From an uncultured Candidatus Saccharibacteria bacterium (GTDB lineage Bacteria > Patescibacteriota > Minisyncoccia > Phycocordibacterales > Phycocordibacteraceae): a DNA stretch of 64,000 nt. This document shows positions 18,673-57,089 of this stretch, piece after piece. Below the pieces are notes generated by a model. The model made no database searches and had not been told where the DNA came from. It saw only the letters and a program-made list of their open reading frames with translations. Made by a program: the position numbers and the translations under genes. Location of the stretch: contig CAZMTN010000002.1 in assembly GCA_964569655.1 (NCBI GenBank), forward strand, positions 901 through 64,900, read 5' to 3'. Within the stretch, counting starts at the first letter, position 1. The number at the start of each line of letters is the position of its first letter.

Positions 18673-19452
18673 TTACGCCTCGCTCGGCCTCCTCGTAACC
18701 ACCGTCGTCCCGCTCTCCTCTATCAAAATGGTGTGCTCGAAGTGGGCGCTCCTACTCCCATCCTTGGTCTTGTAGGTATATCCGTCTGCGGCCATCATGA
18801 CGCCGCCCTTCCCGATGTTTGCGATAGGCTCGAGGGCGAGCACCAGGCCCGGCTCGATCTCGGGCCCCGTGCCCGGGTGGCCGTAGTTCGAGATGAACGG
18901 CTCCTCGTGGACCTTGTCCCCGACGCCGTGCCCGCCGAGCACCTTCACGATAGAGAACTTAGTGCCCGCGTACGCGGTCTCGATTGCGTGCGAGATGTCT
19001 CCGGTGCGGTTCCCTACCTTCGCAGCTGCGATGCCCGCCTCGAGCGCTGCCTTCGTGGCGTCCATGAGGGCGTATGAGGCCTCATCGGTCTGGCCGACGG
19101 CTACGGTTACCGCAGAGTCCACCACGATGCCGTTATGGATGAGGCCGAGGTCCAAGGCGACGATGTCCCCTTCCTCGAGCACGCGGGCGCTATCGGTCGA
19201 GATGCCGTGGACCACTTCGTCGTTCACGGACACGCACAGGGTGGACGGGTACGGGCGCCCGGCGCCTTCTGGCGTGTACCCCTTGAACGCCGGCACGTCT
19301 CCGTTATCGCGGATCAATTTCTCAGAGAGCGCGTCGAGGTCGTGCACGGTGATGCCCGGCTTCACCGCATCCGCGACGGCTTCAAGCACTACGCCGAGGC
19401 GCTTGCCGGCTTCGATGAGGTCAGCACGCTGTTCCGAAGTGCGTACGATCAT
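18673..19452 (-). CDS. map: methionine aminopeptidase type I
   Basis: conserved MAP metal-ligand regions (DIVALDLGLIHNG, HGVGDKVHEEP, HFEHTILIE); start overlaps adk stop. Confidence 0.9.
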   Translation of the reverse strand: MIVRTSEQRADLIEAGKRLGVVLEAVADAVKPGITVHDLDALSEKLIRDNGDVPAFKGYTPEGAGRPYPSTLCVSVNDEVVHGISTDSARVLEEGDIVALDLGLIHNGIVVDSAVTVAVGQTDEASYALMDATKAALEAGIAAAKVGNRTGDISHAIETAYAGTKFSIVKVLGGHGVGDKVHEEPFISNYGHPGTGPEIEPGLVLALEPIANIGKGGVMMAADGYTYKTKDGSRSAHFEHTILIEESGTTVVTRRPSEA

Positions 19453-20021
19453 GCGAGTACCTTCAGGATGTCCTCGTGGATGGCTTCGCGGCTCTGCTCG
19501 CCGTTCACCTCGATGAGCTTCCCGTGCTTCCTGAAGAAGTCGAGCACCGGCTCGGTCTGGGTGCGATACGTATCGAAACGAGCGCGGACCTTCGCTTCGT
19601 CATCGGAATCCGGGCGATGCTCCTCCTTAGCGCGCTCGAGCATGCGGTTCAATGCCTCCTCTTCCCCTACTGAGAGATGGAGCACCGCGTACGGCCGGTT
19701 CATCCACGAGAGGACGCTGTCCGCGAGCTCCGCCTGCGCCACCGTGCGCGGGAATCCTTCGCACACTACTCCTTCGGACTGCCCCATGCCGAGCATAGCC
19801 TCCTCAAAGAGATAGGATGGGAACCAGTCCGGGATGAGGCCGCCGGCGTCATAGGTCTCGCGGACCCGCTCCCCGATCGGGCTCACCTCCTCGCGGATCT
19901 TCCGGAACACCTCGCCCGTGGAGAAATTCTTCCAGCCCCGTTTCTCGGCGAGGAGCTTTGCCTGGGTCCCCTTCCCGGAGCCGGGGCGTCCGAAGAGGAA
20001 GATGGTCTTGGTCTCGTTCAT
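19449..20021 (-). CDS. adk: adenylate kinase
   Basis: P-loop GRPGSGKGTQA, NMP-binding and LID regions; 190 aa. Confidence 0.9.
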   Translation of the reverse strand: MNETKTIFLFGRPGSGKGTQAKLLAEKRGWKNFSTGEVFRKIREEVSPIGERVRETYDAGGLIPDWFPSYLFEEAMLGMGQSEGVVCEGFPRTVAQAELADSVLSWMNRPYAVLHLSVGEEEALNRMLERAKEEHRPDSDDEAKVRARFDTYRTQTEPVLDFFRKHGKLIEVNGEQSREAIHEDILKVLA

Positions 20022-20030
20022 GTATTAAAT

Positions 20031-20609
20031 CTATATCTTCCCTTCCCGTATGGAAAGGAGTGCGGCGGTGAGCGCCTCCTTCGCTTCCTCGAGCTTGCCC
20101 GGGAGATTCTCCACGACCACGTCGGCCTGCGGCTTGAAGGGCAGCTCGTTATCATGGCGCTCCTTGCGCTTGGCGAGCTCGTCCTCGGAAATCTCCGCGC
20201 GAGCGCGTACGCGGCGCTCGTGTTCCTCCCATGAGCCGGCGTCCACGTAGACGATCTTCACGTCCTCGCGCGGCAGCTTCGCGAGTACCTGCCGGATGCC
20301 CTGCACTTCCATCTCCTTTATGATCAGGCGCCCGGCCGCCAGGCCATCCTCGACGTCTTTCTTCGGCGTCCCGTAGGAGCCCTTCTCCAGATGCGCATAT
20401 TCGATAAGCTCCCCGCCCTCCGCCATGGCGTCGAATGCCGGCTGGTCGATGAATGCATAGTCGGCATTCTCAAGCGCGGAGCGACGCGGGCGCGTGGTGT
20501 ACGTCCGGAGGTAGGAGATGTCCGGGAATGTCGCGCGGACATGCTCCATGAGCACGCTCTTGCCGCTCCCGGTGGGACCCATCAGGAGTATGAGCTTGCC
20601 GCGAGTCAT
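20031..20609 (-). CDS. gmk: guanylate kinase
   Basis: P-loop GPTGSGKS and guanylate-kinase signature TTRPRRSALENADYAFI; lies between secY and adk, an unusual position. Confidence 0.7.
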   Translation of the reverse strand: MTRGKLILLMGPTGSGKSVLMEHVRATFPDISYLRTYTTRPRRSALENADYAFIDQPAFDAMAEGGELIEYAHLEKGSYGTPKKDVEDGLAAGRLIIKEMEVQGIRQVLAKLPREDVKIVYVDAGSWEEHERRVRARAEISEDELAKRKERHDNELPFKPQADVVVENLPGKLEEAKEALTAALLSIREGKI

Positions 20610-20636
20610 ATATGCGTGAACTCTAGCACGCGCTGA

Positions 20637-21908
20637 TTAGTATTCGCGGAGCGAGACCTGCGCGTCGATCTTGCGCACGAGGTCGAGGACTACCTGGACG
20701 GCGATGAGGAGCGCGGTACCGCCGACGAGGATTGCCGTGATGCCGGTGATGCCCTGGACGATGAACGGCACGACCGCGACGAATCCGAGGAAGAGCGCGC
20801 CCGGCAGCGTGATGCGGTTCACGACGTTGCCGATGTAGCGCTCGGTCTCAGGACCCGGGCGGACGCCGAGCACGAAGGCGCCGGACTTCTGGAGATTGTC
20901 CGCGACGCGGTGCGGCTCGAAGGTGATCTGCGTGTAGAAGTACGTAAACATGACCACGAGCAGGAAGTAGACGGCCCCGTAGGCGTAGAGGTTGGCCGTG
21001 AAGGCCACGTACCACGCCTCAGCCGGCACGGCCCACCAGAAGCCGAACGAGGAGAGCGCCGCGAGGACCATCTGCGGGAGAAGGAGGAGCGAGAGCGCGA
21101 AGATGAGCGGGATCACGCCGGTCTGGAGGAGGCGGATCGGGAGGTAGGTAGCGCCTGATGCGGCGCCTCCGCCGCGCACCTGGCGGGCGTACGCGATCGG
21201 GATGGAGCGCTCAGCCTCGGACACGACCACCACCGCGTAGATGACCGCGAGGGCAAGCGCGAAGAAGCCGAGGTATGCCGGGATATCGGCTGCGGTCGCG
21301 CTGAAGAGCATCTGCGAGATAGCGCTCGGGATGCTTGCCGCGATACCGGCGAAGATGATGAGCGAGACGCCGTTGCCGATGCCGAACTCGGTAATGAGCT
21401 CGCCGATCCACATGAGGAGGATGGAGCCCGCAGCCACGATGAGGATGCTCGTGATGAGCTCGACGGAGGTCATCGGGAGGAGCACGCCTTGGGCGCGCAG
21501 GAACGAGAGGAACGCCGCCGCCTGGATGAGCGCGATCGGGATGGTGAGCTGGCGGCCCCAGTTCACGAACTTGGCGCGGCCGGCTTCCCCGTCCTCGCTC
21601 TGCATGCGCTTAACGGCCGGGAAGATGATGGTAGAGAGCTGCATCATGATGGATGCGGTGATATACGGACCCACGCCGAGCATCACGATGGAGAGGCTCG
21701 AGAAGCCGCCGCCGGAGAAGATGTTGAGGAGGCCGAAGAACTGATTATTCAAAAAGAAGGACTCGAGCGCGAAGCGGTCGACGCCCGGGATCGGCACGGC
21801 GGCGAGGAAGCGGAATACGGCGAACGCACCCAGGATGAAGAGGATGCGGTTGCGGATAGCGGAGTCGGAGAGGGCGGTGCCGAGCTTGTGGAAGAATGAG
21901 CTAAGCAT
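20637..21908 (-). CDS. secY: preprotein translocase subunit SecY
   Basis: 10-TM SecY with conserved N-terminal and plug regions; 423 aa. Confidence 0.95.
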   Translation of the reverse strand: MLSSFFHKLGTALSDSAIRNRILFILGAFAVFRFLAAVPIPGVDRFALESFFLNNQFFGLLNIFSGGGFSSLSIVMLGVGPYITASIMMQLSTIIFPAVKRMQSEDGEAGRAKFVNWGRQLTIPIALIQAAAFLSFLRAQGVLLPMTSVELITSILIVAAGSILLMWIGELITEFGIGNGVSLIIFAGIAASIPSAISQMLFSATAADIPAYLGFFALALAVIYAVVVVSEAERSIPIAYARQVRGGGAASGATYLPIRLLQTGVIPLIFALSLLLLPQMVLAALSSFGFWWAVPAEAWYVAFTANLYAYGAVYFLLVVMFTYFYTQITFEPHRVADNLQKSGAFVLGVRPGPETERYIGNVVNRITLPGALFLGFVAVVPFIVQGITGITAILVGGTALLIAVQVVLDLVRKIDAQVSLREY

Positions 21909-22347
21909 AGAGGACCGAGCCGCCGGCCTTCTCGATAGCGGCCTTGGCGGATGCGGAAACGACGCAGTCTGAGACGGCGAGTGACTTGGTGAGCTCCCCG
22001 GTGCCGAGGATCTTCGCCTTTACCGAGCGGCCGCGGATGAGGCCCTTCCTGGCGAGAGTGACCGTGTTCACGGTGTCCCCGGAAACGAAGGATGCCTCGA
22101 GCGCGGTGAGGTTCACCGGCATGTAGGAGATGCGGCTGGTGCGCACCGTGCGTGCGCGGTTCTTGCCGTGTCCGCGGCGCTTCGGGAGCTTCTTGATGCG
22201 GTCGCGGATCTCCGGGCGGATCTTGTGTCCCGCGCGGGCGGTCTGGCCCTTGCCGCCGCGTCCGGAAGTCTTGCCGCGCTTGCCGCCGCGTCCGACGCGC
22301 ATGCTGGTGACGCGCTTGGATTTTGCCTTGAGAGTGTTGAGCTGCAT
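21901..22347 (-). CDS. rplO: 50S ribosomal protein L15
   Basis: Gly/Arg-rich N-terminus (RVGRGGKRGKTSGRGGKGQ) and conserved C-terminal domain. Confidence 0.9.
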   Translation of the reverse strand: MQLNTLKAKSKRVTSMRVGRGGKRGKTSGRGGKGQTARAGHKIRPEIRDRIKKLPKRRGHGKNRARTVRTSRISYMPVNLTALEASFVSGDTVNTVTLARKGLIRGRSVKAKILGTGELTKSLAVSDCVVSASAKAAIEKAGGSVLYA

Positions 22348-22357
22348 ACGAAAATGA

Positions 22358-22948
22358 TTAGCCGCGCTTGTTGAGGGACTTCAGCGCTTCGACCGTAGCG
22401 CGGGCGATGGTGAGCTTGTTCTTGGTGCGGGTATGGATCTTGGTGACCACGTCGGTGACGCCCGCGAGCTCGAGCACGGTGCGGACCGAGGAGCCGGCCA
22501 CGAGGCCGCGGCCGCGGGACGGCATGATCTCCACCTCCGAAGACGCGTACTTCATGCGCACGTCGTGCGGGATGGAGTTGGTGTCGGTGCGGAGCACGGT
22601 GATCATGTGCTTCTTCGCGTCGCGAGTAGCCTTGTCGATAGCAAGCGCGGTATCAGCCGCCTTGCCGAGGCCGACGCCCACGCGCCCCTTCTTGTCGCCG
22701 ATGATGATCGCGACAGAGAAGTTGAAGCGGCGTCCGCCGGCCATCACGCGGGCCACGCGGCGCACGGCGATGTTCACCGAGTCGAACTCCGAGCGCTCGC
22801 GCGGAGAGCGCTCGCGTCCTCGTCCGCGGTTCCCTCCCGGGCGTCCGCTATCGCGGCGGCCGCCGCGCGGCGGGCGGGTGTCGGTAGCCGGAGCCGCAGG
22901 GGTTGCGGTTGCTGGGACGTTCGCGAGGATGAGTGAGTCAGAGGCCAT
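22358..22948 (-). CDS. rpsE: 30S ribosomal protein S5 (with ~55-aa Arg/Gly/Pro-rich N-terminal extension)
   Basis: S5 core VNIAVRRVARVMAGGRRFNFSVAIIIGDKKGRVGVGLGKA...; only a 10-nt gap to rplO, so no rpmD (L30) gene. Confidence 0.9.
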   Translation of the reverse strand: MASDSLILANVPATATPAAPATDTRPPRGGRRDSGRPGGNRGRGRERSPRERSEFDSVNIAVRRVARVMAGGRRFNFSVAIIIGDKKGRVGVGLGKAADTALAIDKATRDAKKHMITVLRTDTNSIPHDVRMKYASSEVEIMPSRGRGLVAGSSVRTVLELAGVTDVVTKIHTRTKNKLTIARATVEALKSLNKRG

Positions 22949-22954
22949 AATGTA

Positions 22955-23305
22955 TTAGAAAGTGAGTCCGCCCTCGCGCGCCGCGTCGGCGAGCGCCTTG
23001 ATCTGCGCGCCGTAGAGGTAGCCGCCGCGATCAAAGACGACCGCCGTGACGCCCTTCTCCTTCGCGCGCTTCGCTACTGCTGCGCCGACAGCCACCGCCT
23101 GGGTGCCAAGCGACCCCTTGAACTCGCGGCCGTGTGCAGACGCGAGGGTGGTGCCCTTGGTGTCGTCGATCACCTGCACCGAGATGAACTTGTTGGACTT
23201 GAAGACGGCGAGGCGCGGGCGGGCTTCGGTGCCGCTGATGCGCGCGCGAACACGCGCGTGGCGGCGCTCGCGAGCTGACTTGGTTCCGGTGGATGCGTTT
23301 TTCAT
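22955..23305 (-). CDS. rplR: 50S ribosomal protein L18
   Basis: conserved L18 sequence ([20 protein letters not shown]...). Confidence 0.9.
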
Positions 23306-23310
23306 AGATG

Positions 23311-23844
23311 TTATACGGCCTTCTTACCCTGCTTGCGGAGGATGGTCTCGTCCGAGTAGCGGATGCCCTTGCCGAGGTACGGCTCAGGCTCCTTCACGGA
23401 ACGGACGTTGGCGGCGAACTGCCCGACCATCGCCTTGTCCGGACCCTCGATGGTGATGACGTTCTTCTCGACGGTGGCGGTGAGGCCTTCAGGCACCTGG
23501 AGCTTCACCTGGTGCGAGAAGCCGACGGTGAAGACGAGCTCCTTGCCCTTGAGCTCCACGCGGTAGCCGACGCCTTCGAGGATGAGCCCCTTCTTGAACG
23601 GAGTCTCGACGCCCTTCACCATGGAGCGGATGTGGGATGCGTAGGTGCCGGTGAGGGCCTTCGCGAGCTTCGAGGAGTTCTTCGGGGTGATGACCACGCC
23701 CTCCGGGGTGACCTCGATCTGGACGTAGTGGTGGACCGGCTTCGAGAGGGTCGCCTTCGCGCCCTTCACGGATACGGAGTCAGCCGTCGCGGTCACTTCG
23801 ACCTTAGCGGGGATGATGATGGGCTTCTTAGCAAGGCGGCTCAT
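23311..23844 (-). CDS. rplF: 50S ribosomal protein L6
   Basis: two L6 alpha/beta repeats; [17 protein letters not shown]... Confidence 0.9.
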
Positions 23845-23859
23845 ACGTACAAAAATGAT

Positions 23860-24252
23860 TTACCAGACCTCGAAGAGGTTCTCGCCGCCGGCGCGGACCT
23901 TGCGAGCCTCGCGATCGGAGAGGATGCCCTTCGGGGTAGAGATGATGCGGGCGCCGACGCCGTTCTTCACGCCGTGCGCTTCGCGGGCGTTCACGTAGAG
24001 GCGGCGGCCGGGCTTCGACACGCGCTTCACACCCTTGATGCGATGAGCCCCGTTCGCGTCGTACGCGAGGGTGACCTCGAGCATCTTCTTGTCTCCGGAC
24101 TTGGTGGCGACGTCAGCGACGTAGCCGAGCTCGCGGAGCTTCTTCGCGATAGCCTCGAGGTATGCGGAGTGCGGGAGGGATACTACTTCCTTCCCCACCG
24201 CTCCGGCGTTCTGAAGGCGGATGATGAAATCTCCGACGCGGTCGTTTACCAT
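23860..24252 (-). CDS. rpsH: 30S ribosomal protein S8
   Basis: [16 protein letters not shown]... conserved S8. Confidence 0.9.
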
Positions 24253-24515
24253 GATGCTTTCTTAACGCCCGGGATCTTGCCCTCGCGGGCGAGGTTGCGG
24301 AACTCGATGCGGGACAGGCCGAACGGGCGCATGTATCCGCGCGGGCGGCCGGAGATCGCGCAGCGATTCTTGAGGCGGACCGGGCTCGAGTTGCGAGGGA
24401 GCTTCTGGAGGCCTTCCCAGTCTCCGGCAGCCTTAAGAGCCGCACGCTTTACAGCGTACTTCTCGACGAGCTTTGCCTTCTTGGCATTGCGGGCGATCTG
24501 TGAGGTTTTGGCCAT
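24246..24515 (-). CDS. rpsN: 30S ribosomal protein S14 (long, non-zinc form)
   Basis: start at internal [16 protein letters not shown]...; conserved C-terminus [39 protein letters not shown]. Confidence 0.85.
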
Positions 24516-24638
24516 ACAAAAAAAGCTCCGGGGAGCGTCAACCCAATGTATCATCTGGGTTCTAGGGCGTCAAACGGGGCTAAGATGAAGGGCGCAGCCG
24601 GGGGTGTACCCTGCTGCGCCCTGTGCTGTTTTGGCCCC

Positions 24639-25058
24639 CTATAAGAGGGCGAACGAGATGGCGGTGTCCTCCTCGTAGGGAGGCTCGGCCTCCTGGACCC
24701 GGATAGTCCGCTCGTTCTGCTCGCTCCACTGCACCGTGATGTCGAGCACGGAAAGCTTGTGCCATTTCAGCAGTTTCCTCACCTGGTCGAGGAGGTGCTG
24801 CTGCCCCTCGACGCTCAGATATCCGAAACGGCGGGAGATCTCAGCGGCCTTGAACTGGATATAGTTCACGTTCTCGTTCCTCGTAGAGAACGTGACCGAG
24901 CGATCCTGCCTGTTCGCCGGCCGCTTGCCGAGGAATGCTTCCACGGCCTCCTTGCGCAGCTCCGGCTTCGCAGCGAACAGGTCATTCAAGTGGCATTCGC
25001 CGATCCGTTCCCGGATCCTGAACGCAGGCGAGTTTAGTCCGTCTACTAACGTGTCCAT
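24639..25058 (-). CDS. uncharacterized protein, paralog A of a tandem pair inserted between rplE and rpsN (139 aa)
   Basis: ATG with AAGGAG SD; shares motifs with paralog B (GECHLNDLF vs TECHLHDII; LDITVQWSEQNERTIRVQEAE vs LDVEVEWGPESKRRIRAQEAG). Confidence 0.55.
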   Translation of the reverse strand: MDTLVDGLNSPAFRIRERIGECHLNDLFAAKPELRKEAVEAFLGKRPANRQDRSVTFSTRNENVNYIQFKAAEISRRFGYLSVEGQQHLLDQVRKLLKWHKLSVLDITVQWSEQNERTIRVQEAEPPYEEDTAISFALL

Positions 25059-25199
25059 GCTTACTCCTTACCCTGGGATGCTGCGACGCGGACGCACATA
25101 CGTCATGATCCTGGGTGTTTAAGCGTCCGGAGGCACCATAACAGAGCGTATTAGCAAAGTAAAAGGCGCGGCAGGATTTCTCCGCCGCGCCCATTGTTC

Positions 25200-25586
25200 T
25201 CAGATAAGAAAGAACCGCAGATCCCCTTCCCCGTGCTGCAGATTGGTCCTGTTGCCCGCTTCTTGCGCTCGGATGCGGCGCTTCGACTCCGGACCCCATT
25301 CCACCTCAACATCCAGCGTCTGGGATCGCTGGTCCTTCATGGCCGTCCGGACTCTGTACAAGAAGGCCTGCTGCGCGTCGATCGGCATCTTGAGATAGCG
25401 AAGCAGCAGCTTGGCATCCTTGAAATAGATATGCACTACTCCTCGGGTCTCGCTCCACCAAGGGTCAGCGACGCAGAAGAGGTCCTCTGAACGTTCGCCT
25501 TTGAAGGCCGCCTCGATATTCCGGCGGTTTTCCCCATCTCCGATGATGTCGTGGAGATGGCATTCAGTCACTGAAAGCGTCTTCAT
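25200..25586 (-). CDS. uncharacterized protein, paralog B of tandem pair (128 aa from internal ATG)
   Basis: internal ATG (MKTLSVTECHLHDII...) with GGAGAA SD; upstream track extension is low-complexity; same-strand as the r-protein operon. Confidence 0.55.
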   Translation of the reverse strand: MKTLSVTECHLHDIIGDGENRRNIEAAFKGERSEDLFCVADPWWSETRGVVHIYFKDAKLLLRYLKMPIDAQQAFLYRVRTAMKDQRSQTLDVEVEWGPESKRRIRAQEAGNRTNLQHGEGDLRFFLI

Positions 25587-25712
25587 TGCAGTTCTCCGGC
25601 TACGGGCTCTACACATGGACGCACATTGTGCATACCCGAGCGATAACGCGTCCGCCCGCACCATAGCAAAACGCCCCGGCGTTAGCCAGGGCGCTCTGTC
25701 TTCTTGTGAAAT

Positions 25713-26246
25713 CTACTTGCGGAACGGCACGCCGAGGTGCTTGAAGAACGCCATAGCATCCTTCTTGCTCTTCGCGCTCGTGACGATGGTCACGGCGAGG
25801 CCGAAGACGTCCTTCACCTCCTCATCTGAGGTCTCCGGGAAGATGGTGTTCTCCTTGATGCCGATGGTGAGGTTGCCCATCTCGTCTACCGCCGACGCAT
25901 TGATGCCGCGGAAGTCGCGGGTACGCGGGAGGGCGACGTGGATGAGGCGGTCGAGGAAGTCATACATGCGGGCGCCGCGAAGCGTGGTCTGGAAGCCGAC
26001 GGTGTCTCCCTCGCGGACCTTGAAGGACGCGATCGAGATGCGGGCGGCGCGGCGAGCGGCCTTCTGGCCGGTGATGCGCGCGAGCTTGCCCTCGATGAGC
26101 TCGAGGACCTTCTTGTCGCGCTTCTTGCCCACGCCGGTCGAGACGATGACCTTCTCGATGCGGGGAGCCGCCATGCGGTTCTTGTAGCCGGACTCCTCCT
26201 TGAGGATGTCGTAGGCGGCCTGAGTACGTTCTTTGGTAAGCATCAT
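25713..26246 (-). CDS. rplE: 50S ribosomal protein L5
   Basis: conserved L5 (YKNRMAAPRIEKVIVSTGVG... GNLTIGIKENTIFPE). Confidence 0.9.
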   Translation of the reverse strand: MMLTKERTQAAYDILKEESGYKNRMAAPRIEKVIVSTGVGKKRDKKVLELIEGKLARITGQKAARRAARISIASFKVREGDTVGFQTTLRGARMYDFLDRLIHVALPRTRDFRGINASAVDEMGNLTIGIKENTIFPETSDEEVKDVFGLAVTIVTSAKSKKDAMAFFKHLGVPFRK

Positions 26247-26253
26247 ACGCGTA

Positions 26254-26559
26254 TTAGTTAAGGGTGGTGCCGCTCTTCGTGACGCGGACGCGCTTGCCGT
26301 CCTTCATGACGCGCTTCACGCGGGTCGGCTTGTCCCCTTTCGGGTCCATGACCATCACGTTAGAAGCGTGGATCGGCATCGCGCGGTCGACGATGGTGCC
26401 GGACTGGCCGCGCAGGCGGGAGCGGGTGTGGCGCTTGTGCATGGACACGCCGTCCACGATGACCTTGTTGGTCATCGGGAAGGCCTGGAGGACGGTTCCC
26501 GTCTTCCCCTTGTCCTTGCCGGTCATGACCTTGACCGTGTCTCCCTTCTTGACCTTCAT
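26254..26559 (-). CDS. rplX: 50S ribosomal protein L24
   Basis: KOW-motif protein MKVKKGDTVKVMTGKDKGKTG...; start placed at internal ATG with GAGGT SD (alternative upstream start at 26631 would add a 24-aa basic extension). Confidence 0.8.
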   Translation of the reverse strand: MKVKKGDTVKVMTGKDKGKTGTVLQAFPMTNKVIVDGVSMHKRHTRSRLRGQSGTIVDRAMPIHASNVMVMDPKGDKPTRVKRVMKDGKRVRVTKSGTTLN

Positions 26560-26638
26560 CTTGAAGACCTCGACCTTGCGGGCGACCGGGAACTTCTTGT
26601 GGCGGATGTTGAGCTGAGTGTACTTTTTCATATATAGG

Positions 26639-27016: not shown

Positions 27017-27020
27017 AAGA

Positions 27021-27296
27021 TTATTCGGCGTCTGCCGCGATTGCGGCCTTATCGATGGACTTGAGCGCGAAGCGCTTCAGCTTGGACATCGGGCGGCAGG
27101 ACACGATGGTGACCTGGTCGCCGACCTTCGCCGTGTTCCCTGCGTCGTGGACGAGGTACTTCTTGGTGCGGGTCTGGAACTTCTTGTACTTCGCGTGCTT
27201 CACGTAGCGGTCCACGGCCACGGTCATCGTGTCCTTCATGGCCGTCTTCACGACGGTGCCGGTGAACGTCTGGGGCTTTGGGGTGGTTGTTTCCAT
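27021..27296 (-). CDS. rpsQ: 30S ribosomal protein S17
   Basis: conserved S17 core (FTGTVVKTAMKDTMTVAVDRYVKHAKYKK...). Confidence 0.9.
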   Translation of the reverse strand: METTTPKPQTFTGTVVKTAMKDTMTVAVDRYVKHAKYKKFQTRTKKYLVHDAGNTAKVGDQVTIVSCRPMSKLKRFALKSIDKAAIAADAE

Positions 27297-27301
27297 AAAA
27301 G

Positions 27302-27487: not shown

Positions 27488-27489
27488 AG

Positions 27490-49092: not shown

Positions 49093-49191
49093 GGCAGTTC
49101 CTTTCTGTGAAAGACCTCTTCGCTGTCCATGGTACACCCGCGCACAAGAGTGTGGTAATCTCGTCAGGTGCTTAACAGAGGGGGATAAAGC

Positions 49192-49410
49192 ATGAAACGT
49201 CCGAGTCTCGGATTTCTTACGTTCGGAGCGGCCATCATCATTTTTTTGGGATGGGTCCCGCTCAGCGTCGAAGGCAGCAAACCTGGGTCCACCATCCCGG
49301 GGATGCTCATCGACGCGATGATGGTGATCTGGATCGTCCTGCTGATCCATGCCGTCGTCTGGTTCGCGGTCACGGCCCGCAGGAAGCCGAAAGAAGAAGC
49401 AGCTCTTTAA
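49192..49410 (+). CDS. small membrane protein (72 aa, 2 TM)
   Basis: ATG with GAGGGGGA SD; followed by hairpin GGCTCC...GGAGCC + TTTCTTTAT. Confidence 0.45.
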   Translation: MKRPSLGFLTFGAAIIIFLGWVPLSVEGSKPGSTIPGMLIDAMMVIWIVLLIHAVVWFAVTARRKPKEEAAL

Positions 49411-49515
49411 AGGGCGCAGGGGTATACAAGGAAGATAAGGCTCCGCCACGCGTGGAGCCTTTCTTTATGCGAAAACCGCCCTTTCGGGCGGCTTTCGGGA
49501 GAATCTCACTCGAGA

Positions 49516-50025
49516 CTACATCCGCCCCTGGAGATCGCTCATGAGCTTCAAGGCGCGCTCGATGCGAGCCTTGTTCTCCGCTTCAGTCTGCTCAGTTCCT
49601 GGACTCACGATCACTTCCGCGACCTGGCCGCTCCTCCCCGCAAGATCCTCGTACTGCCGCTCGAGCGCGTCCGCCTGACGCGCGAGCGCCTCGGACCCTG
49701 TCTCGCCGGTCGCGTCGATGACCGTCGGCTGGCGCAGGTCGGTGTCTCCCCGAGGAGCCATGGTGACGACCGCCTGGTCGCCATTAAGCTCGACCGCGGC
49801 CCCGTTGCCCATCTGCATCGGCGCACCCATCTCCTCGGCGGTTATCTCCTGTATGAGGACCGGCCTCTCCTTCGCCTTCGGCATGGAATCTTTGATGACC
49901 TCTCCAGTCGCGCCTCCGGCTAAGGCGCCGCCAACGAGTACCGTTGCGCCGACGACCCCAGCTCCCTTATTGATATCCTCCTCGGATGCTGCCTTCTTCT
50001 TGAACGGGTTCTCGAAAAATCCCAT
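49516..50025 (-). CDS. hypothetical Gly/Ala-rich protein (169 aa)
   Basis: ORF downstream of fusA on same strand; no family. Confidence 0.4.
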   Translation of the reverse strand: MGFFENPFKKKAASEEDINKGAGVVGATVLVGGALAGGATGEVIKDSMPKAKERPVLIQEITAEEMGAPMQMGNGAAVELNGDQAVVTMAPRGDTDLRQPTVIDATGETGSEALARQADALERQYEDLAGRSGQVAEVIVSPGTEQTEAENKARIERALKLMSDLQGRM

Positions 50026-50110: not shown

Positions 50111-52258
50111 TTATTTGCGAGCCGCGATGATCTCCTGCGCGACGTTCCCCGGCACCACCTCGTACTTCTCGAACTCCATGGTCATGGAGCCGCGTCCTTC
50201 CGTCATGGAGCGGAGCGTGGTGGTGTAGCCGAACATCTCGGAGAGCGGCACATGAGCGTGGATGGCCTTGTTCATGCCGCGGTCCTCCATGCCTTCGATA
50301 GCGCCGCGCTTACCCGAGAGGGAGCCGGTGATGTCGCCCATGAACTTCTCCGGCACGACCACCTCGACGCGCATGATCGGCTCGAGGATGACCGGCTTCG
50401 CCTTCTCGGCCGCTTCCTTGAACGCCATGGATGCGGCGATCTTGAAGGCGATCTCCGAGGAGTCCACATCGTGGTACGAGCCGTCGTAGAGCTCGATCGA
50501 GAGATCCACCACCGGGAAGCCGGCGAGGATACCGCGGGCCATAGACTCGCGGAGACCCTTCTCCACCGGCGCGATGAACTCGGCCGGGACCACGCCTCCC
50601 TTGATGTTGTTGATGAACTCGAAGTGGTCCTCGCGGGTGACGTTCTTCGGGATCTTCGCGCCCTCCTCAAGCGGCTCGAGGTGCTTCATCTTGATCTTCA
50701 CGTGGCCGTACTGACCCTTACCGCCGGTCTGCTTGATGTACTTACCTTCGGCATCTGAGGCACCCATGATGGTCTCGCGGTACGCCACCTGCGGCTTGCC
50801 CACGTTCGCGGTCACGTTGAACTCGCGCTTCAGGCGGTCCACGAGGATCTCGAGGTGGAGCTCGCCCATGCCCGAGATGATGGTCTCGTTGGTCTCGTCA
50901 TCCGAGGTGACGCGGAAGGTCGGGTCCTCGTCGGAGAGCTTCTTCAATGCCATGCCCATCTTCTCCTGGTCGGCCTTGGTGGCCGGCTCGATGCGGAGCG
51001 ACACCACCGGCTCCGGGAACTTGATGGACTCGAGGATGATCGGATGGTTCTCGTCGCAGAGGGTGTGGGAGGTCTTCGTGTCCTTGAGGCCCACCGCTGC
51101 GGCGATCTCTCCGGCGAACACCTTCTTCACCTCTTCGCGCTTGTCTGCCTGGAGGCGCACGATGCGTCCCACGCGCTCCTTGGTGCCCGTAGCGGAGTTG
51201 TATACGTACGAGCCGGCCTCGATGCTTCCTGAGTACACGCGGAAGAACGTGAGGGCTCCGACGAACGGGTCGGTCTGGAGCTTGAACGCGAGCGCGGTGA
51301 ACGGCTCCTCGTCTGACGCCTTGCGCACGAGCTCCGCTCCGGTCTTCGGATCGGTGCCGGTGACGGGCGGCATGTCGAGCGGGGACGGGAGGTACTCCAC
51401 GACGGCGTCCAGCACCAGCTGCACGCCCTTGTTCTTGAGCGCTGAACCCGTGAATACCGGGAAGATCTTGTTCGCGATCACCGCCTTGCGGAGGATCTTC
51501 TTGAGCTCCTCGACCGAAGGCTCCTTGCCCTCGAGGTACGCGCTCATGGCGGCGTCATCGTGCTCCACGATGCGCTCGACGAGCTCCGCGCGGTACTTCT
51601 TCGCCTCCTCGACGAGCTCCGCCGGGATCTCTCCCTCCACCACTTCCTCGCCCATGTTCCCGACGAAGGAGTACGCCTTCATCTTGAGGAGGTCTACGAC
51701 GCCCTCGTGGTTGCCCTCTTCCCCGATCGGGATCTGCATGCGAACGGCCTTCTTAGAAAGGCGGTCGAGGATGGATGCGTAGGAGCGCTCGAAGGATGCT
51801 CCGGTGCGGTCCAATTTATTGATGAAACAGAGGCGCGGGACGTTAGCCTCGTCCGCGTAGCGCCAGTTGGTCTCCGACTGCGGCTCCACTCCGGCGACGC
51901 CGTCGAACACGACGACCGCGCCGTCGAGCACGCGCATGGAGCGCTTCACCTCCACGGTGAAGTCGATGTGGCCCGGGGTGTCGATCACGTTGAAACGGGT
52001 CTTCTTGGACGGATCCTTCTTGTCCGCCTCGGTCGACTGCGTCCAGAAGCAGGTGATGGCCGCTGCAGTGATGGTGATGCCGCGCTCGCGCTCCTGCTCC
52101 ATCCAGTCGGTGGTGGTCTCTCCTTCGTGCACCTCGCCGATCTTGTGCTGGGAGCCCGTGTAGAAGAGCACGCGCTCGGACGTGGTGGTCTTGCCCGCAT
52201 CGATGTGGGCGATGATACCGAAGTTGCGCACTCGATCCAATGGATAATCGCGGTTCAT
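50111..52258 (-). CDS. fusA: elongation factor G
   Basis: GTPase motifs [21 protein letters not shown]; 715 aa. Confidence 0.95.
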
Positions 52259-52357: not shown

Positions 52358-52777
52358 CTATGGACTCTCCCTGCGATAGACCGGGAACTCGCGCCAGTGG
52401 CTCGCCACGACCTGCCTGCGCTCGAACGCCTCCTTGAAGCGCTTGCTGAGGCGGCCGAAAAGCTCGTCCGACTCAGTCCAGACATACGCTTCATAGGGGT
52501 CTCCGAATTCGCCCCCTACCGCGGTCGTGGCGATGACCTTCCCGTCCTGGACGAACTCGACGAGACGTCCTTTAGGGTTGCCCCGGGTAGTGACCGGATT
52601 GCGGGGCGACGAGATCTCTTCGGCGAGCATTTCGAGATCTTCCCGGAAGCAGCGGTTGTACGGGCCGGCGCCGTACCAGGGATCTTCAGGAACCTGCGCT
52701 GGTCTCGGCAACCTTGGGCGTAACATCCTGCCTAGCAATGCGAACATGCGTATCTCCAAATCTTGATCCGAGGGCAC
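52358..52777 (-). CDS. hypothetical protein (139 aa)
   Basis: followed on minus strand by hairpin GGGCGGC...GCCGCCC + T-run before fusA. Confidence 0.35.
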   Translation of the reverse strand: MPSDQDLEIRMFALLGRMLRPRLPRPAQVPEDPWYGAGPYNRCFREDLEMLAEEISSPRNPVTTRGNPKGRLVEFVQDGKVIATTAVGGEFGDPYEAYVWTESDELFGRLSKRFKEAFERRQVVASHWREFPVYRRESP

Positions 52778-52838
52778 TATAGGCCGCTTATATATAAAAG
52801 CAAAGAGGCCCCCTTTCGGAGACCCCCTCGTAGTGCTT

Positions 52839-53270
52839 TTAGTATTTTACCTGTCCTAACGGCGGGATGCGTTCGAAGCGGCGCTCGTCCATGGGGTCAT
52901 CGAAGACCTTCTCGGCCTTCGGGCAACCGGCGTCCGTGATGGGAACGACACATACGTGCTTCCAGCCCGGAACGAAGAAGTGCCAGACCCCGTCGAACCA
53001 GGTGATTCGGGGACTGTAGGGATCATCGGCGATCACATACCCGCAGAAAAGACCGAAGGCAATCACCGATGCGATCACTATCCGGCGTACCCAGACCCAG
53101 ACCCGGCACAGGAAGGACCAGAGCCTACGCAATGCCGCTTCTGACTGATACGTGAGCGCTGGTCCGCGGGTATCAACCTCGAACGCGCGCCCTCCGTAAA
53201 GAACATCTACATCTACTGATGACACGGGAACCTCTACTTCGATAATCAGTTTCAGGCAACATAATGACAC
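52839..53270 (-). CDS. hypothetical membrane protein
   Basis: central TM (RRIVIASVIAFGLFCGYVI); no family. Confidence 0.3.
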   Translation of the reverse strand: MSLCCLKLIIEVEVPVSSVDVDVLYGGRAFEVDTRGPALTYQSEAALRRLWSFLCRVWVWVRRIVIASVIAFGLFCGYVIADDPYSPRITWFDGVWHFFVPGWKHVCVVPITDAGCPKAEKVFDDPMDERRFERIPPLGQVKY

Positions 53271-53316
53271 GGTAATTCAAATAAGGCAAGTTCCTGTCCT
53301 TCCTGCCCTGCAAACG

Positions 53317-55269
53317 ATGTATAGTGCGCATATGGATTACATCCCGACCCGCGTCCAGGATCTCCTGACCTCGCTCAGCGCCTGGTGGGTGCTGGTGCTC
53401 ATCGGGGCGTTCCTCATCTCGGTCTCCTTGGGCTTCTCCATCCCGCTCGCCTACCCCGTCGCGATAGCGCTCTCCTTCTTCGGGGGCCCGGCGTACGCCA
53501 TCGTCATGTTCGTGCTCTCTCTGAGCTACGGCATCTGGTCCGGCTGGTCCGTGACCGCGCTCCTCCTCGTACCGGCGGCACAGGCCGTTTCCGTCGCCGG
53601 CGCCGCGTACGCCCTCCGGAGGCTCCAGGTAGACCCGCTCTTCCGAAAGCGCCATGACACGCTCTATACCATCGGCGTCCTTGCTGCAGCGACGCTCCTC
53701 GTCTCTGCCGCCCGCTCGTTCGCCTTCGCCATGCCGTGGCTCACTCTCTACAGCGCCATCTTCATGGCCTCGATCGCCATCGTGCCGTTCGGCATGCGCT
53801 GGGTCGGCAAGCCGCACTTCAGCCGCTCGTGGATCGAGATCATGGAGATCGTGGCCGTCTTCTTCATACTCACCGCCTCCGTGTGGAGCATCGCGACGTA
53901 CGGGTTCGATATCGCGGGCGCGGCGGCGATTCTGCTCGCTCTCTCGTGGATCGCGCTCGAGCTGCGCCCGCGCTTCACCACGCTCGCGGTGCTCATCCTC
54001 GCGTTCGCTGTATCGGTCGCACGTCCCCATGACCCCATCGCGGACTTTTTCGTCTCCGCGCTCGGCTGTCTCTTCCTCCTGTTCTCCTCGCTCGAGGAGC
54101 AGCGCCGCGTGAGCGTGAACCTGGCCAAGAGCCAGATGGGTGCCTTGGAGAACGCCATGGCGCGCATGTCGTCCGAGGCCCAGGGCAAGAATGATTTCAT
54201 CGCCATGCTCGCGCATGAGCTCAGGAATCCGCTCGCGCCCATCGCTTCGAGCATCGAGCTCATGCAGCTCAAGGAGCGCGACGAGGAGGAGAAAGGCATG
54301 CTCTCCATGATGAACGACCGCGTGCAGACCATCCGCCGGCTGCTTGAGGACCTACTCGACACCTCGCGCATCAGCGAAGGCAAGTTCGCCATCCGGAAGG
54401 AGGTGGTGGAGCTGCGTGCGGTCATCGAGCGCGCGATCGCCTCCACCGAGCACTACTTCAAAGAGAGCCATCAGACCCTCCGTACGGACCTCCCGGGCGA
54501 CGCGGTCTACGTGCGCGGGGACGCCGTCCGCCTCGAGCAGGTGGTGGGCAATCTCCTCGCGAACGCGTCCAAGTATTCAAATAGCGGCGGCACTGTCTCG
54601 ATCGCGCTCAAGAAGAAAGAAGACGACGCCGAGATCTCCGTGCGGGATAACGGCGTCGGCATCCCGGCAGACGCCCTCGAGGACATCTTCATTCCGTTCC
54701 ACCAGGCCGGGCACGAATCGCGCACGAAGAAGGGCCTCGGCATCGGACTCGCGCTCGTCCGCGGCTTCGTCACCATGCACGGCGGGTCCATACGCGTGGA
54801 GAGCGAGGGCGAGGGCAAAGGCAGCACGTTCACCGTGCGATTCCCCCGCATCGAGCCGCTCACGTCGGCGAGCGAAGAGGAGGCATCGGACGCGCCGGCG
54901 ACGTTCGCGCCCGGCTTCCGCGTGCTCGTGGTGGACGACAACGACGCCGCAGCGGGCGTGCTCGGGAAGCTCCTCATACTCCGCGGCGCGGAAGTGGACT
55001 ACGCCTACGACGGCAAGCAGGGCATCGACCGCGCCAAGCGCTTCTTCAAGCCGGACCTCATCCTCCTCGACATCGGCCTCCCGGACATGGAGGGATACGA
55101 GGCGGCCAAGCGCATCCGCAAGAACGGATACGAGGGCCGTCTCATCGCGCTTACGGGCTACGACTCCGAGGAATCACGCCAGAAAAGTAAGGACGCCGGC
55201 TTCGACGCCCACCTCGTGAAGCCCATCGGTCTCGCCGAGCTCCAGGCCGCGGTGCCGGAGCTCCGCTAG
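53317..55269 (+). CDS. hybrid sensor histidine kinase / response regulator (polytopic membrane sensor + HisKA + HATPase_c + REC)
   Basis: ~8 N-terminal TM helices; H-box MLAHELRNPLAPI; N/G boxes (NASKYSNSGG, DNGVGI, GLGIGLALV); C-terminal receiver VLVVDDNDAA...LDIGLPDMEGYE...KPI. Confidence 0.85.
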   Translation: MYSAHMDYIPTRVQDLLTSLSAWWVLVLIGAFLISVSLGFSIPLAYPVAIALSFFGGPAYAIVMFVLSLSYGIWSGWSVTALLLVPAAQAVSVAGAAYALRRLQVDPLFRKRHDTLYTIGVLAAATLLVSAARSFAFAMPWLTLYSAIFMASIAIVPFGMRWVGKPHFSRSWIEIMEIVAVFFILTASVWSIATYGFDIAGAAAILLALSWIALELRPRFTTLAVLILAFAVSVARPHDPIADFFVSALGCLFLLFSSLEEQRRVSVNLAKSQMGALENAMARMSSEAQGKNDFIAMLAHELRNPLAPIASSIELMQLKERDEEEKGMLSMMNDRVQTIRRLLEDLLDTSRISEGKFAIRKEVVELRAVIERAIASTEHYFKESHQTLRTDLPGDAVYVRGDAVRLEQVVGNLLANASKYSNSGGTVSIALKKKEDDAEISVRDNGVGIPADALEDIFIPFHQAGHESRTKKGLGIGLALVRGFVTMHGGSIRVESEGEGKGSTFTVRFPRIEPLTSASEEEASDAPATFAPGFRVLVVDDNDAAAGVLGKLLILRGAEVDYAYDGKQGIDRAKRFFKPDLILLDIGLPDMEGYEAAKRIRKNGYEGRLIALTGYDSEESRQKSKDAGFDAHLVKPIGLAELQAAVPELR

Positions 55270-55335
55270 ACGCCCCCCTCTTTTAGTGGTACATCGATAC
55301 AGAAGGGCGCGTGTTCTTAACGCAAAGGATCGACC

Positions 55336-55992
55336 ATGAACCTGTTACCGGAACAGGTCGCTGGCCTGTTCCTCAAACGTAATGTCACCATAGAGCAGTT
55401 CAACGAGGAGAGCGACAAGCCGTTCTCGTCGCTTCAGAAGGAGCACGATACCGGCGAAGCCCGCATCTTTCGCCAACGGAACGGCCGTTTCCTCCGCTTC
55501 TCGCATGCTGCCCGCATCTTCACTGCGGACAAGCGCTTCGAATACCGCGAAGTGGGCCATCGCCGGCTCCGCTCCGCTAACGCGAAGACGCGATACGAGA
55601 CGAAGCCGCACGTGATCAGCGAGACCATCCATTGGTGGTCACCGGTGCACGAGCGGGAACGGAAGGCTGCGATCTTCGGCATCCAGGAAGAGCTCGGCAC
55701 GTTCGTGAGCGAGAAGGCCCTGGTCTTCCTCGGTTGCGACCTCAGGTGGCCGGCTCCTCATGTATCGAGCGCGTACTTCGAGTTCGACAGCTCGACGAAG
55801 GGGTACAACTTCTTCGTCCCGCCTGAACTGCTCGGACTGCATGAGCGCGACTGGGAGAACAACCGCACGTTCACGAGCGAATACATCGCAGACGGGACGA
55901 TGAAGGAGTCGATAAGCATCATCGAGCGGTTCCCGATCACCGACACCGGAAGGAAACTTCTGGAGAGAGTGAAGCAGCTCCGCGCCGCATGA
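55336..55992 (+). CDS. hypothetical protein (218 aa)
   Basis: downstream of the hybrid kinase; followed by terminator GCCCCGCGCC-loop-CGCGGGGC + TTTTTT (56005-56037). Confidence 0.4.
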   Translation: MNLLPEQVAGLFLKRNVTIEQFNEESDKPFSSLQKEHDTGEARIFRQRNGRFLRFSHAARIFTADKRFEYREVGHRRLRSANAKTRYETKPHVISETIHWWSPVHERERKAAIFGIQEELGTFVSEKALVFLGCDLRWPAPHVSSAYFEFDSSTKGYNFFVPPELLGLHERDWENNRTFTSEYIADGTMKESISIIERFPITDTGRKLLERVKQLRAA

Positions 55993-56175: not shown

Positions 56176-56209
56176 GAAAAACCGCCCTCTCGGGCGGCTT
56201 TCCTTTTCG
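56176..56209. terminator. intrinsic terminator AAAAACCGCCC-TCTC-GGGCGGCTTTCCTTTTCG (recurrent family) immediately after rpsG
   Basis: 3 nt downstream of rpsG stop on minus strand. Confidence 0.6.
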
Positions 56210-56211
56210 TA

Positions 56212-56676
56212 TTACCAGGCGAAGTGGGCGAAGGCCTTGTTGGAGTCCGCCATGCGGTGCATGTCGTCCTTCTTCTTGATGGCGTTGCCTTCGTTCTTGG
56301 CCGCGAGGATGAGCTCGTTGGCGAGCTTGTCCGCCATAGGCTTGCCCTTGGTGGCGCGGGCGCCGCCGATGATCCAGCGGAACGAGAGCGCGAGGCGGCG
56401 TGCCTGCGGGACCTCGCGCGGAACCTGGTAGTTCGCGCCTCCGACGCGGCGGGAGCGGACTTCCATGAGCGGAGAGACATTGCGGATCGCGGTCTCGAAA
56501 GTCTCGAGGGGATCCTGGCCGTCCGCCTTGATCTTCTCGAGGGCGTCGTACACGATGGTGCGCGCCGTATCCTTCTTGCCGTCCCACATCACCGCGTTGA
56601 TGAAGCGGGTGAGCATCTCGGACTTGTATTTGAGGTCTGGGCGCCAGGTGCGCTGCTTCTTGAGTGGACGTCGCAT
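56212..56676 (-). CDS. rpsG: 30S ribosomal protein S7
   Basis: conserved S7; 154 aa. Confidence 0.9.
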   Translation of the reverse strand: MRRPLKKQRTWRPDLKYKSEMLTRFINAVMWDGKKDTARTIVYDALEKIKADGQDPLETFETAIRNVSPLMEVRSRRVGGANYQVPREVPQARRLALSFRWIIGGARATKGKPMADKLANELILAAKNEGNAIKKKDDMHRMADSNKAFAHFAW

Positions 56677-56681
56677 AATAA

Positions 56682-57089
56682 TTATTTAGGCTTCTTGCCG
56701 CCGTAACGGGAGCGGGAGACGCGGCGCTTCTCGAGGCCGGCGGTGTCGAGCTTGCCGCGGACGACGGTGTACTGGACGCCGATGTCCTTCACGCGGCCGC
56801 CGCGCACGAGGACGACGGAGTGCTCCTGGAGGTTGTGGCCCTCTCCCGGGATGTACGCGGTGATCTCCATGCCGTTGGTGAGGCGGACGCGGGCGATCTT
56901 ACGGATAGCGGAGTTAGGCTTGCGCGGGGTCTTGGTGGTCACCTTGGTGCAGACGCCACGCTTGAACGGAGACGGGTAGAACGTCGGGTGGTTCTCAAGC
57001 GTGTTGAAGCCGCGGCCAAGAGCCAAGACCTTCGTCTTGCGAGGCTTGTCCTTGCGGCGCTTCTTCGTGAGCTGGTTGATGGTTGCCAT
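56682..57089 (-). CDS. rpsL: 30S ribosomal protein S12
   Basis: highly conserved S12 ([45 protein letters not shown]). Confidence 0.95.

Follow-up and report, generated by a model that had tools for sequence, protein, structure and literature searches.

In Gammaproteobacteria and Bacilli, a few unrelated genes are inserted between the str, S10, spc and alpha operons (PMC6735719, PMC8046335). The str-S10-spc ribosomal-protein supercluster described here lies at positions 18,673 to 57,089 of a stretch of 64,000 nucleotides (nt), hereafter the window, from contig CAZMTN010000002.1 of an uncultured bacterium (GenBank assembly GCA_964569655.1, positions 901 to 64,900). It resembles those cases in that gene order is kept and insertions sit at boundaries between operons, but its breaks at rpsJ/rplC, rplB/rpsS and rplE/rpsN fall within stretches that form the S10 and spc operons in E. 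coli and B. subtilis, are common to a whole clade, are sharply bounded by a promoter and by a stop codon or terminator, and hold fast-changing content. Bacterial pangenomes contain integration hot spots and defence islands flanked by core genes. The breaks studied here are likewise fixed slots between core genes with variable, exchanged cargo that includes restriction-modification (R-M) and toxin-antitoxin genes; they differ in lying inside the ribosomal supercluster, in being bounded by a stop codon or terminator on one side and a promoter on the other, in their mixed cargo and in having neither an integrase nor a tRNA target. Archaea have S10 after EF-Tu/EF-1alpha, with a separate start for the L3-L4-L23-L2-S19 cluster. 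The rpsJ/rplC break recalls that order, with rpsJ on the tuf side (tuf-rpsJ about 20 nt in several relatives), but the genes and promoters are bacterial, the breaks at rplB/rpsS and rplE/rpsN are additional, and no common origin is implied. We consider it probable that in this clade the cluster is built of short self-contained transcription units, and that the spacers between units are fixed slots for accessory genes, of which a type I R-M cassette is the newest here.

Pfam searches on every sizeable open reading frame (ORF) placed 27 of 27 translation and secretion genes on the minus strand in the canonical order from rpsL to secY-adk-map, with rpmD as the sole gene missing. Read along that strand, the genes are rpsL-rpsG, fusA, tuf, rpsJ, rplC-rplD-rplW-rplB, rpsS-rplV-rpsC-rplP-rpmC-rpsQ-rplN-rplX-rplE, rpsN-rpsH-rplF-rplR-rpsE-rplO-secY, gmk and adk-map. 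The cluster is not contiguous: seven junctions (rpsG/fusA, fusA/tuf, tuf/rpsJ, rpsJ/rplC, rplB/rpsS, rplE/rpsN and secY/adk) carry non-ribosomal genes, with 0.6-11 kb of other genes and terminators. The resulting units and their predicted signals are the following.

56212-57089, minus strand: rpsL-rpsG unit (Pfam); promoter-like TTGCAT-17-TATAGT at about 57150-57122; terminator hairpin at 56203-56176.
50111-52258, minus strand: fusA, monocistronic (Pfam); hairpin at 50088-50062 after the stop codon.
47266-48468, minus strand: tuf (Pfam); terminator at 47245-47216.
45614-46025, minus strand: rpsJ (Pfam); promoter-like TTGCAT-17-CATACT at 46025-45997; terminator at 45596-45571.
42863-42975, minus strand: rplC promoter (TTGCAT-17-TATAGT, 42975-42947) and 85-nt structured leader with hairpins P1, P2 and P3.
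40260-42862, minus strand: rplC-rplD-rplW-rplB unit (Pfam); terminator at 40258-40231.
25713-29332, minus strand: rpsS-to-rplE unit; promoter TTGACG-17-TATCTT at 29332-29304; leader hairpin at 29295-29281; terminator at 25698-25667.
18673-24573, minus strand: rpsN-to-secY-gmk-adk-map unit; promoter-like TTGACG-17-TACATT at 24573-24545.

At 19 of the 21 minus-strand gene ends at the breaks, including those of rpsG, fusA, tuf, rpsJ, rplB and rplE, we found a perfect, GC-rich hairpin of 11-15 bp with a U-rich 3′ arm or tail. These hairpins start 1-22 nt past the stop codon; the two gene ends that lack one are those of the YgjP-like and 2-oxoglutarate (2OG) oxygenase genes of the rplB/rpsS insert. 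An initial annotation of this DNA had described a supercluster broken at six or more junctions, each marked by intrinsic terminator hairpins, with sigma70-like promoters before rplC and rpsS and with rpmD absent as in some lineages. The count of junctions, the gene order, the hairpins and the existence of both promoters agree with our results, and so does the lack of rpmD: only 10 nt separate rpsE from rplO, and loss of uL30 (rpmD) is a known trait of the candidate phyla radiation (CPR; PMC9297842). The gene map of that annotation needed revision. The genome has about 60% GC, and confirmed genes have a GC content at third codon positions (GC3) of 0.74-0.93; because of this high GC3, a three-phase GC plot separates real frames from spurious ORFs. 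This frame analysis changed the strand or the reality of several inserted ORFs, and homology places the rplC start at the ATG at 42862 (202 amino acids, aa) and not at the GTG at 42910. By homology too, rpsN probably starts at about 24515 (89 aa). L2 is read as 282 aa in the window, versus the later start (269 aa) used by gene callers.

To compare the cluster with relatives, we ran tblastn with the window proteins against three sets of loci: 80 from genomes, centred on rplB; 10 that surround the closest L2 proteins; and 80 from metagenomes, retrieved with L23. Among species-representative genomes the best L2 match had 71% identity, and the large protein collection yielded matches of up to 97%; the closest L2 proteins (80-97% identity) belong to metagenome-assembled genomes (MAGs) of Paceibacterota, 'Pacebacteria' and Kaiserbacteria. 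Judged by these identities, the window is a piece of a Kaiserbacteria-like Paceibacteria chromosome (CPR/Patescibacteria). Gaps of at least 300 bp between neighbouring genes were distributed as follows.

rplB/rpsS: 14/16 clade loci, 0/64 outgroup loci (outgroup median 8 bp, maximum 119 bp).
rpsG/fusA: 5/6 clade loci, 0/16 outgroup loci.
fusA/tuf: 9/10 clade loci, 1/16 outgroup loci.
rpsJ/rplC: 9/17 clade loci, 3/44 outgroup loci.
rplE/rpsN: 4/13 clade loci, 0/41 outgroup loci (gaps under 50 bp).
Other 15 gene-to-gene junctions inside units: none in the clade, at most a few in the outgroup; rpsE/rplO and rplP/rpsQ span rpmD and rpmC.

In an independent metagenome sample, 8/8 loci whose L2 is 60% or more identical had an rplB/rpsS gap of 253-3097 bp, and every locus at 55% or less had one of -19 to 78 bp. 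Across both samples, rplB/rpsS is open by at least 250 bp in 22/24 clade loci, compared with none of about 97 outgroup loci, and Yanofskybacteria locus L072 is closed. These counts, together with the closed outgroups and L072, show that the openings are discrete, recurrent and confined to one part of the CPR. They also bear out the statement of the initial annotation that rpsJ/rplC, rplB/rpsS and rplE/rpsN are normally contiguous, since these are mostly closed in outgroup loci (3/44, 0/64 and 0/41 open). The comparison of synteny that it had called for argues, on the other hand, against a break-up specific to this genome, because the same junctions are open in clade relatives.

The signals that bound the units are shared as well. 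A terminator follows rpsJ in L081-L090, L005, L008 and L011, and comparable hairpins follow rpsJ, rplB and fusA in relatives. The boxes before rplC keep both their sequence and their distance from the start codon in six genomes, and those before rpsS in five; rpsN is preceded by TTGACN-17-TAnAnT in four genomes, two of which, L089 and L090, have an rplE-rpsN spacer of about 65 nt with no insert. Boxes before rpsL (TTGCAT/TTGCTT-17-TATAGT) are likewise conserved, and those before rpsJ (TTGCAT-17-CATACT) occur in three genomes with a terminator after tuf and are common to L083 and L090. Nucleotide homology to L081, L082 and L090 runs from the -35 box or the leader to the stop codon or terminator, with no alignment in between. 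The block holding rplC-rplB extends from 42975 to 40258 and, against L081 (92% nucleotide identity), ends at the rplB stop codon; the rpsS block begins at 29334; and the homology of fusA to L082 starts 72 nt before the ATG and stops precisely with the stop codon. The partition, including the rplC and rpsS promoters, is ancestral, because the promoters hold the same positions in relatives with different cargo or none, and the inserts fill pre-existing spacers between terminator and promoter. The idea that the operon had been re-partitioned into independently transcribed pieces under fresh promoters is thus upheld as regards independently promoted and terminated pieces, but not as regards their freshness: the breakpoints are long fixed in the lineage. 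The inserts themselves are not identical among relatives, as a long-fixed feature might have had them, since cargo differs at flanks that are 90-95% identical.

Indeed, the same flanks hold different content even between genomes with 90-95% identity in their flanking ribosomal-protein DNA, which is the mark of a hot spot. At rplB/rpsS, L081 (L2 97% identical, ribosomal DNA 90-95%) carries an EcoRI-like methylase, a GmrSD_N-HNH nuclease and an HD protein; L086 has an S-adenosylmethionine-dependent methyltransferase, L090 two 2OG oxygenases (one 61% identical to that of the window), L001 MazE-MazF, and L005 an IS200-like Y1 transposase with a 1007-aa secreted protein. RelB-YafQ (L001) and a reverse transcriptase (L012) are found at rplE/rpsN. 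The rpsJ/rplC slot holds a ParE toxin pair in L089 and, in L081, three of the five small genes of the window along with others that include an NYN protein. Defence-type cargo (R-M, GmrSD-HNH, toxin-antitoxin, reverse transcriptase) was thus seen amid 45 mixed Pfam families in a census of 118 ORFs. The label 'defence island' was dropped after this census: the cargo is not dominated by defence or addiction genes, and the term would overstate their part. As variable regions, the slots are of a general kind: selfish and defence modules stand out in them but do not predominate.

In the window, the slots hold the genes listed below; strands are those supported by frame analysis, and the plus-strand genes are antisense to the cluster.

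52358-55992, both strands: insert A (rpsG/fusA), with a 218-aa gene (plus, 55336-55992), a hybrid histidine kinase gene (plus, 53317-55269) and two small genes (minus, 52839-53270 and 52358-52777).
48685-50025, both strands: insert B (fusA/tuf), with genes for a 169-aa protein (minus, 49516-50025), a 72-aa protein with two transmembrane segments (plus, 49192-49410) and a 136-aa protein (minus, 48685-49095).
46020-47212, both strands: insert C (tuf/rpsJ), with a 209-aa gene (minus, 46534-47163) and a second gene (plus, 46071-46496).
43027-45510, minus strand: insert D (rpsJ/rplC), five co-directional small genes (45007-45510, 44736-44957, 44285-44653, about 43974-44230, and 43027-43860 with multiple transmembrane segments), each with its own terminator.
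32639-40142, minus strand: type I R-M cassette of insert E (rplB/rpsS), with overlapping genes hsdM (37722-40142), hsdS (36427-37725), hsdR (33297-36464) and a YgjP-like metallopeptidase gene (32639-33310).
29361-32562, both strands: resident part of insert E, of host-like GC3, with a 2OG-Fe(II) oxygenase gene (minus, 31651-32562; Pfam), a 180-aa gene (minus, 31035-31577), an 84-aa ORF (plus, 30742-30996), a DUF3298 gene (plus, 29866-30666) and a further gene (plus, 29361-29801).
24639-25586, minus strand: insert F (rplE/rpsN), tandem paralogues p2 (25200-25586) and p1 (24639-25058).

Minus-strand ORFs at 29378-29674 and 30772-31140 were rejected as genes by the frame and GC3 analysis. Most cargo genes are predicted to be monocistronic modules of promoter, gene and terminator, several of them antisense, and all those outside the R-M cassette have a host-like GC3 of 0.71-0.89. 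Every gene of insert A has its own terminator; its kinase combines HisKA, HATPase_c and Response_reg domains (Pfam) and has a counterpart in L082 (67% aa identity) that occupies the same slot and points the same way. Genes of insert B match nothing in Pfam or PHROGs, and the small inserted proteins in general match nothing in Pfam, PADLOC or PHROGs. Neither gene of insert C is present in any compared relative, where tuf and rpsJ are 18-134 nt apart except in the distant L012 (786 nt); a bidirectional terminator (46527-46499) separates the two genes. Near-consensus promoters precede two cargo genes: a perfect TTGACA-16-TATAAT (47212-47185) before the 209-aa gene of insert C and TTGACA-16-TAAAAT (43934-43907) within insert D. 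Insert D genes recur in relatives at 33-70% aa identity, three in L081, one in L082 and one in L086. The DUF3298 protein, with an N-terminal membrane anchor and an extracytoplasmic-type domain, is encoded antisense beside rpsS in every close relative examined, and the 2OG gene is also found in L090 and L083. As the initial annotation had proposed, p1 and p2 are true paralogues (31% identical, E = 1e-15); each has its own terminator, and their 5′ leaders are similar, as if duplicated. Their family is rare (36 representatives among 1.84 billion proteins), and a structure model of medium confidence resembles no solved fold. At the seventh junction, gmk (20031-20609) sits between secY and adk without a terminator; it occupies the same place in L002, L008 and L089 and is missing from other relatives.

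The R-M cassette stands apart from the other cargo. It spans 7.5 kb with a GC content of 0.43-0.51 (compared with 0.60 for the genome) and a GC3 of 0.36-0.62 (compared with 0.71-0.89 for other inserted genes), so that 32639-40142 is the only insert with the deviating base composition of a mobile island. HsdM, HsdS and HsdR are full length by Pfam and PADLOC (MTase_I at 1e-303 over the whole model, Specificity_I, REase_I), with a methyltransferase domain in HsdM, two target-recognition domains in HsdS, and a nuclease, a superfamily 2 (SF2) helicase and a C-terminal domain in HsdR. By gene content, hsdM-hsdS-hsdR-YgjP is an intact type I R-M system. As in known systems of this type, three full-length subunits with the expected domains are encoded in one overlapping operon, and the four-gene cassette is found in other Patescibacteria. 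The nearest of these cassettes have 81-85% aa identity in HsdM, about 80% nucleotide identity across hsdM and hsdR-YgjP, and the same base composition as that of the window. They sit, however, next to ddl in elements that also encode a large serine recombinase and a Prim-Pol protein, whereas the window holds the four genes only, between the rplB terminator and the 2OG gene, apart from that backbone and without a recombinase. The cassette is absent from every compared relative and compositionally foreign; it is therefore clearly a recent arrival whose GC has not been ameliorated, and the sole clearly recent insert.

The ddl-adjacent element, present on at least 24 contigs, encodes in L092-L095 a 543-aa serine recombinase and a Prim-Pol of 739-755 aa, with an Mrr_N-GmrSD_N nuclease in L092-L094, and is apparently an integrative element with a wide distribution in CPR bacteria. 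Separately, the rplB/hsdM spacer of the window holds GGAGAGGTTCGAACCCTATTTTCACCA at about 40200-40220 (minus strand), which resembles the T-arm and acceptor end of a tRNA. It could be what is left of an attachment site; we also considered the GGTTCGAACCC string as a tRNA remnant and rejected this, as neither ARAGORN nor Rfam gave a match.

The leader before rplC deserves separate description. Its P1 hairpin, GUACGGCU..GGCCGGAC, is closed by G-C and U-A pairs and is followed by ACC(A/U)NUGG and then by P2; P3 is a GC-rich GCGCC..GGCGC hairpin followed by UAAUUUUUUU, a U run, directly before the ATG. In 13 relatives, with L2 identities as low as 64%, rplC has the same three-hairpin layout in front of it, and P3 with its U run stands before the ATG in 13/14 genomes, the hairpin of L010 having an A-rich tail. 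In P1, GC and CG are exchanged at two positions, and 34 of 36 cells, counted on hand-anchored stems, are canonical, compared with 21.9 ± 2.5 in shuffles, a control that ignores relatedness; P2 also shows compensatory changes. RNAalifold predicted nothing on the MAFFT alignment of the leaders, in which hairpins of distant sequences are out of register, and a covariance model was abandoned. No Rfam leader family was found in the region at gathering or E-value threshold. A covarying structure in the 5′ untranslated region that ends in a terminator is what defines a leader or attenuator, and this one looks like a candidate for a new ribosomal-protein leader of the uL4-encoding unit. The S10-operon leader of E. 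coli is an attenuator under the control of ribosomal protein L4 (PMC3616713). By analogy, both would be promoter-proximal structures that end in a terminator hairpin before an operon encoding uL4. The present leader differs in preceding rplC and not rpsJ, in having no sequence or Rfam similarity to that of E. coli, and in being limited to Paceibacteria relatives.

Other regulatory structures in the window follow recurring designs. A short GC hairpin and a U-rich run lie directly 5′ of the rpsS, rpsN and rpsL starts (29281-29295, about 24520-24535 and 57101-57115, minus strand); these hairpins are kept in relatives with stem changes, and no Shine-Dalgarno sequence is obvious between hairpin and ATG. 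Five terminators share one design, CCGCCC-GNRA-GGGCGG between A and U runs (8627-8648, 12136-12157, 45573-45594, 49473-49494 and 56179-56200), where none is expected by chance. We rejected these hairpins as a mobile repeat: they are ordinary terminators, also follow the tmRNA gene and unrelated genes, and recur in relatives, so that the design seems typical of terminators in this lineage. Only a few bases behind many terminators (44963-45006, 44692-44735, 25667-25712 and similar spacers) comes an extended -10 element that resembles TGCTATAGT and has no clear -35 box, which suggests very compact terminator-promoter junctions between cargo genes.

In the reading that we favour, the cluster of this clade would be a chain of units (rpsL-rpsG; fusA; tuf; rpsJ; rplC-rplB; rpsS-rplE; rpsN-secY-adk-map) in place of one or three long operons, each unit with its own sigma70-type promoter, short structured leader and intrinsic terminator. 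The spacers from terminator to promoter would be the only places in the cluster that tolerate foreign DNA without uncoupling co-translated ribosomal genes, and for that reason would have become fixed slots that collect and exchange accessory genes, with cargo turning over much faster than its flanks. The hsdM-hsdS-hsdR-YgjP genes would have landed just after the rplB terminator, beside the older 2OG oxygenase and antisense DUF3298 genes. Since neither an integrase nor a target duplication is present, entry probably took place by homologous recombination via the conserved flanking ribosomal genes or by illegitimate insertion into the spacer. Several points weigh against this reading. The borders of the R-M cassette show no direct or inverted repeats, only short chance-level matches, and no integrase, so that both homologous recombination and site-specific integration are putative routes of entry; aligning the island borders to the spacers between rplB and the 2OG gene in L090 and L083 gave no further clue. 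Taken as a class, promoter-like matches are about as frequent as in shuffled sequence (6 versus 6.2; 8 versus 5.0), and the promoter calls are supported by conservation of the boxes in relatives and not by match frequency. Promoters and terminators are predictions, from which we infer their actual use, and several small ORFs are called on frame composition alone. Finally, many of the cargo families are ordinary metabolic or membrane proteins, among them Mur ligase, diacylglycerol kinase, CNNM, MFS, FIST, an ABC binding protein and a glycosyltransferase. A bolder version, which we regard as possible but doubtful, is that of a modular rebuild, in which ribosomal genes serve as homology arms for swapping whole cassettes of R-M, toxin-antitoxin, nuclease and membrane-protein genes between strains and even species, the cargo is shielded and the rplC unit has acquired a new autoregulatory leader. 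Essential neighbours would then protect cargo from deletion, and the hosts would probably be competent and dependent on recombination.

The junctions could instead be attachment sites of site-specific mobile elements such as integrases and transposons. The serine recombinase and Prim-Pol that travel with the nearest R-M cassettes, the IS200-like Y1 transposase (L005) and reverse transcriptase (L012) in slots of relatives, and the T-arm-like string beside hsdM would all fit; yet that string matches no tRNA, no recombinase (Pfam), transposase, direct or inverted repeat was found in or at the window inserts, no tRNA target was detected there by ARAGORN or by an Rfam E-value scan, and most cargo units are single genes of host-like composition, so that we find this explanation unlikely. 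More improbable still is the recent, genome-specific break-up of an intact operon with newly evolved promoters, as the initial annotation had it. Promoters do precede rplC and rpsS, and both the compositionally foreign R-M cassette and the tuf/rpsJ genes are absent from relatives; against this, the 22/24 open clade loci, the clade-wide terminators after rpsJ and rplB, and the rplC, rpsS and rpsN promoters and leaders found at the same spacing in relatives, even at insert-free junctions, all place the partition earlier. That the inserted genes are lineage-specific ribosome-associated or translation factors, kept for co-regulation, could be argued from the small basic or unknown proteins within the cluster, from the retention of DUF3298 at one junction across the close clade and from gmk adjoining adk without a terminator. 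We give this idea very little credence: the cargo changes from relative to relative, almost all of its genes end in a terminator of their own and many have a promoter of their own, several are antisense, the DUF3298 protein is membrane-anchored with an extracytoplasmic-type domain, and the recognisable cargo consists of R-M, toxin-antitoxin, kinase, oxygenase and membrane proteins. A chimeric assembly, with ribosomal segments and inserts from different molecules or organisms stitched at conserved genes, seems very unlikely, and misassembly in general is unlikely. The source is a MAG and the R-M block has a foreign GC, but a second assembler joined the same sequences: Logan contig SRR15237806_96888 (11,054 nt) is identical to window 29273-40326 without a mismatch, spanning the last 67 nt of rplB, the terminator, the R-M cassette, the 2OG and DUF3298 genes and the rpsS leader. 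It may derive from the same reads as the source, being an independent assembler and not an independent sample, which also counts against our reading. Its ends, one at the 3′ end of rplB and the other 5 nt short of the rpsS ATG, could be taken as graph branching favouring a chimera; they suggest to us co-existing strains in SRR15237806 with different cargo between identical ribosomal genes. The HsdM and p1 proteins are on record from both a 200,990-bp NCBI contig and a Logan assembly. Furthermore, the same junctions are broken in over 20 relatives whose genomes were assembled independently, orthologues of the resident cargo (DUF3298, 2OG, kinase and small genes) occupy the corresponding junctions in relatives, and all ribosomal segments are coherent in their identity to the same relatives and in GC3 (0.74-0.93).

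Full-text searches of the literature gave no description of a split-cluster organisation in CPR bacteria, which is weak evidence of absence; this is a clean, lineage-typical feature of a major uncultured group, apparently undescribed so far. To place CPR genomes and assess the quality of MAGs, the standard marker is a syntenic block of 16 ribosomal genes. Here that block is interrupted at fixed points by as much as 11 kb of strain-variable DNA, and assembly graphs seem to break at these points, which bears on binning, completeness estimates and the risk of chimeras in the clade. A whole bacterial class appears to have replaced the long S10 and spc operons with short units; this raises the question of how they control ribosomal-protein stoichiometry, and the conserved rplC leader is a concrete candidate for it. 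The slots also offer unusually well-bounded natural hot spots for the study of gene flux (R-M, toxin-antitoxin) in genomes well under 1 Mb of organisms that cannot yet be grown alone.

Neither rpoBC nor the alpha operon flanks the cluster. Just upstream of rpsL, in the place that rpoBC occupies in many bacteria, lie a gene for a Xer-type tyrosine recombinase (58436-59359, plus strand) and an NYN-domain gene (57490-58005, minus strand); an NYN gene is also found in the rpsJ/rplC slot of L081. Elsewhere in the window, we identified a tRNA-Ile gene with anticodon TAT (5431-5504) and a tmRNA gene (8215-8619, 103.6 bits).

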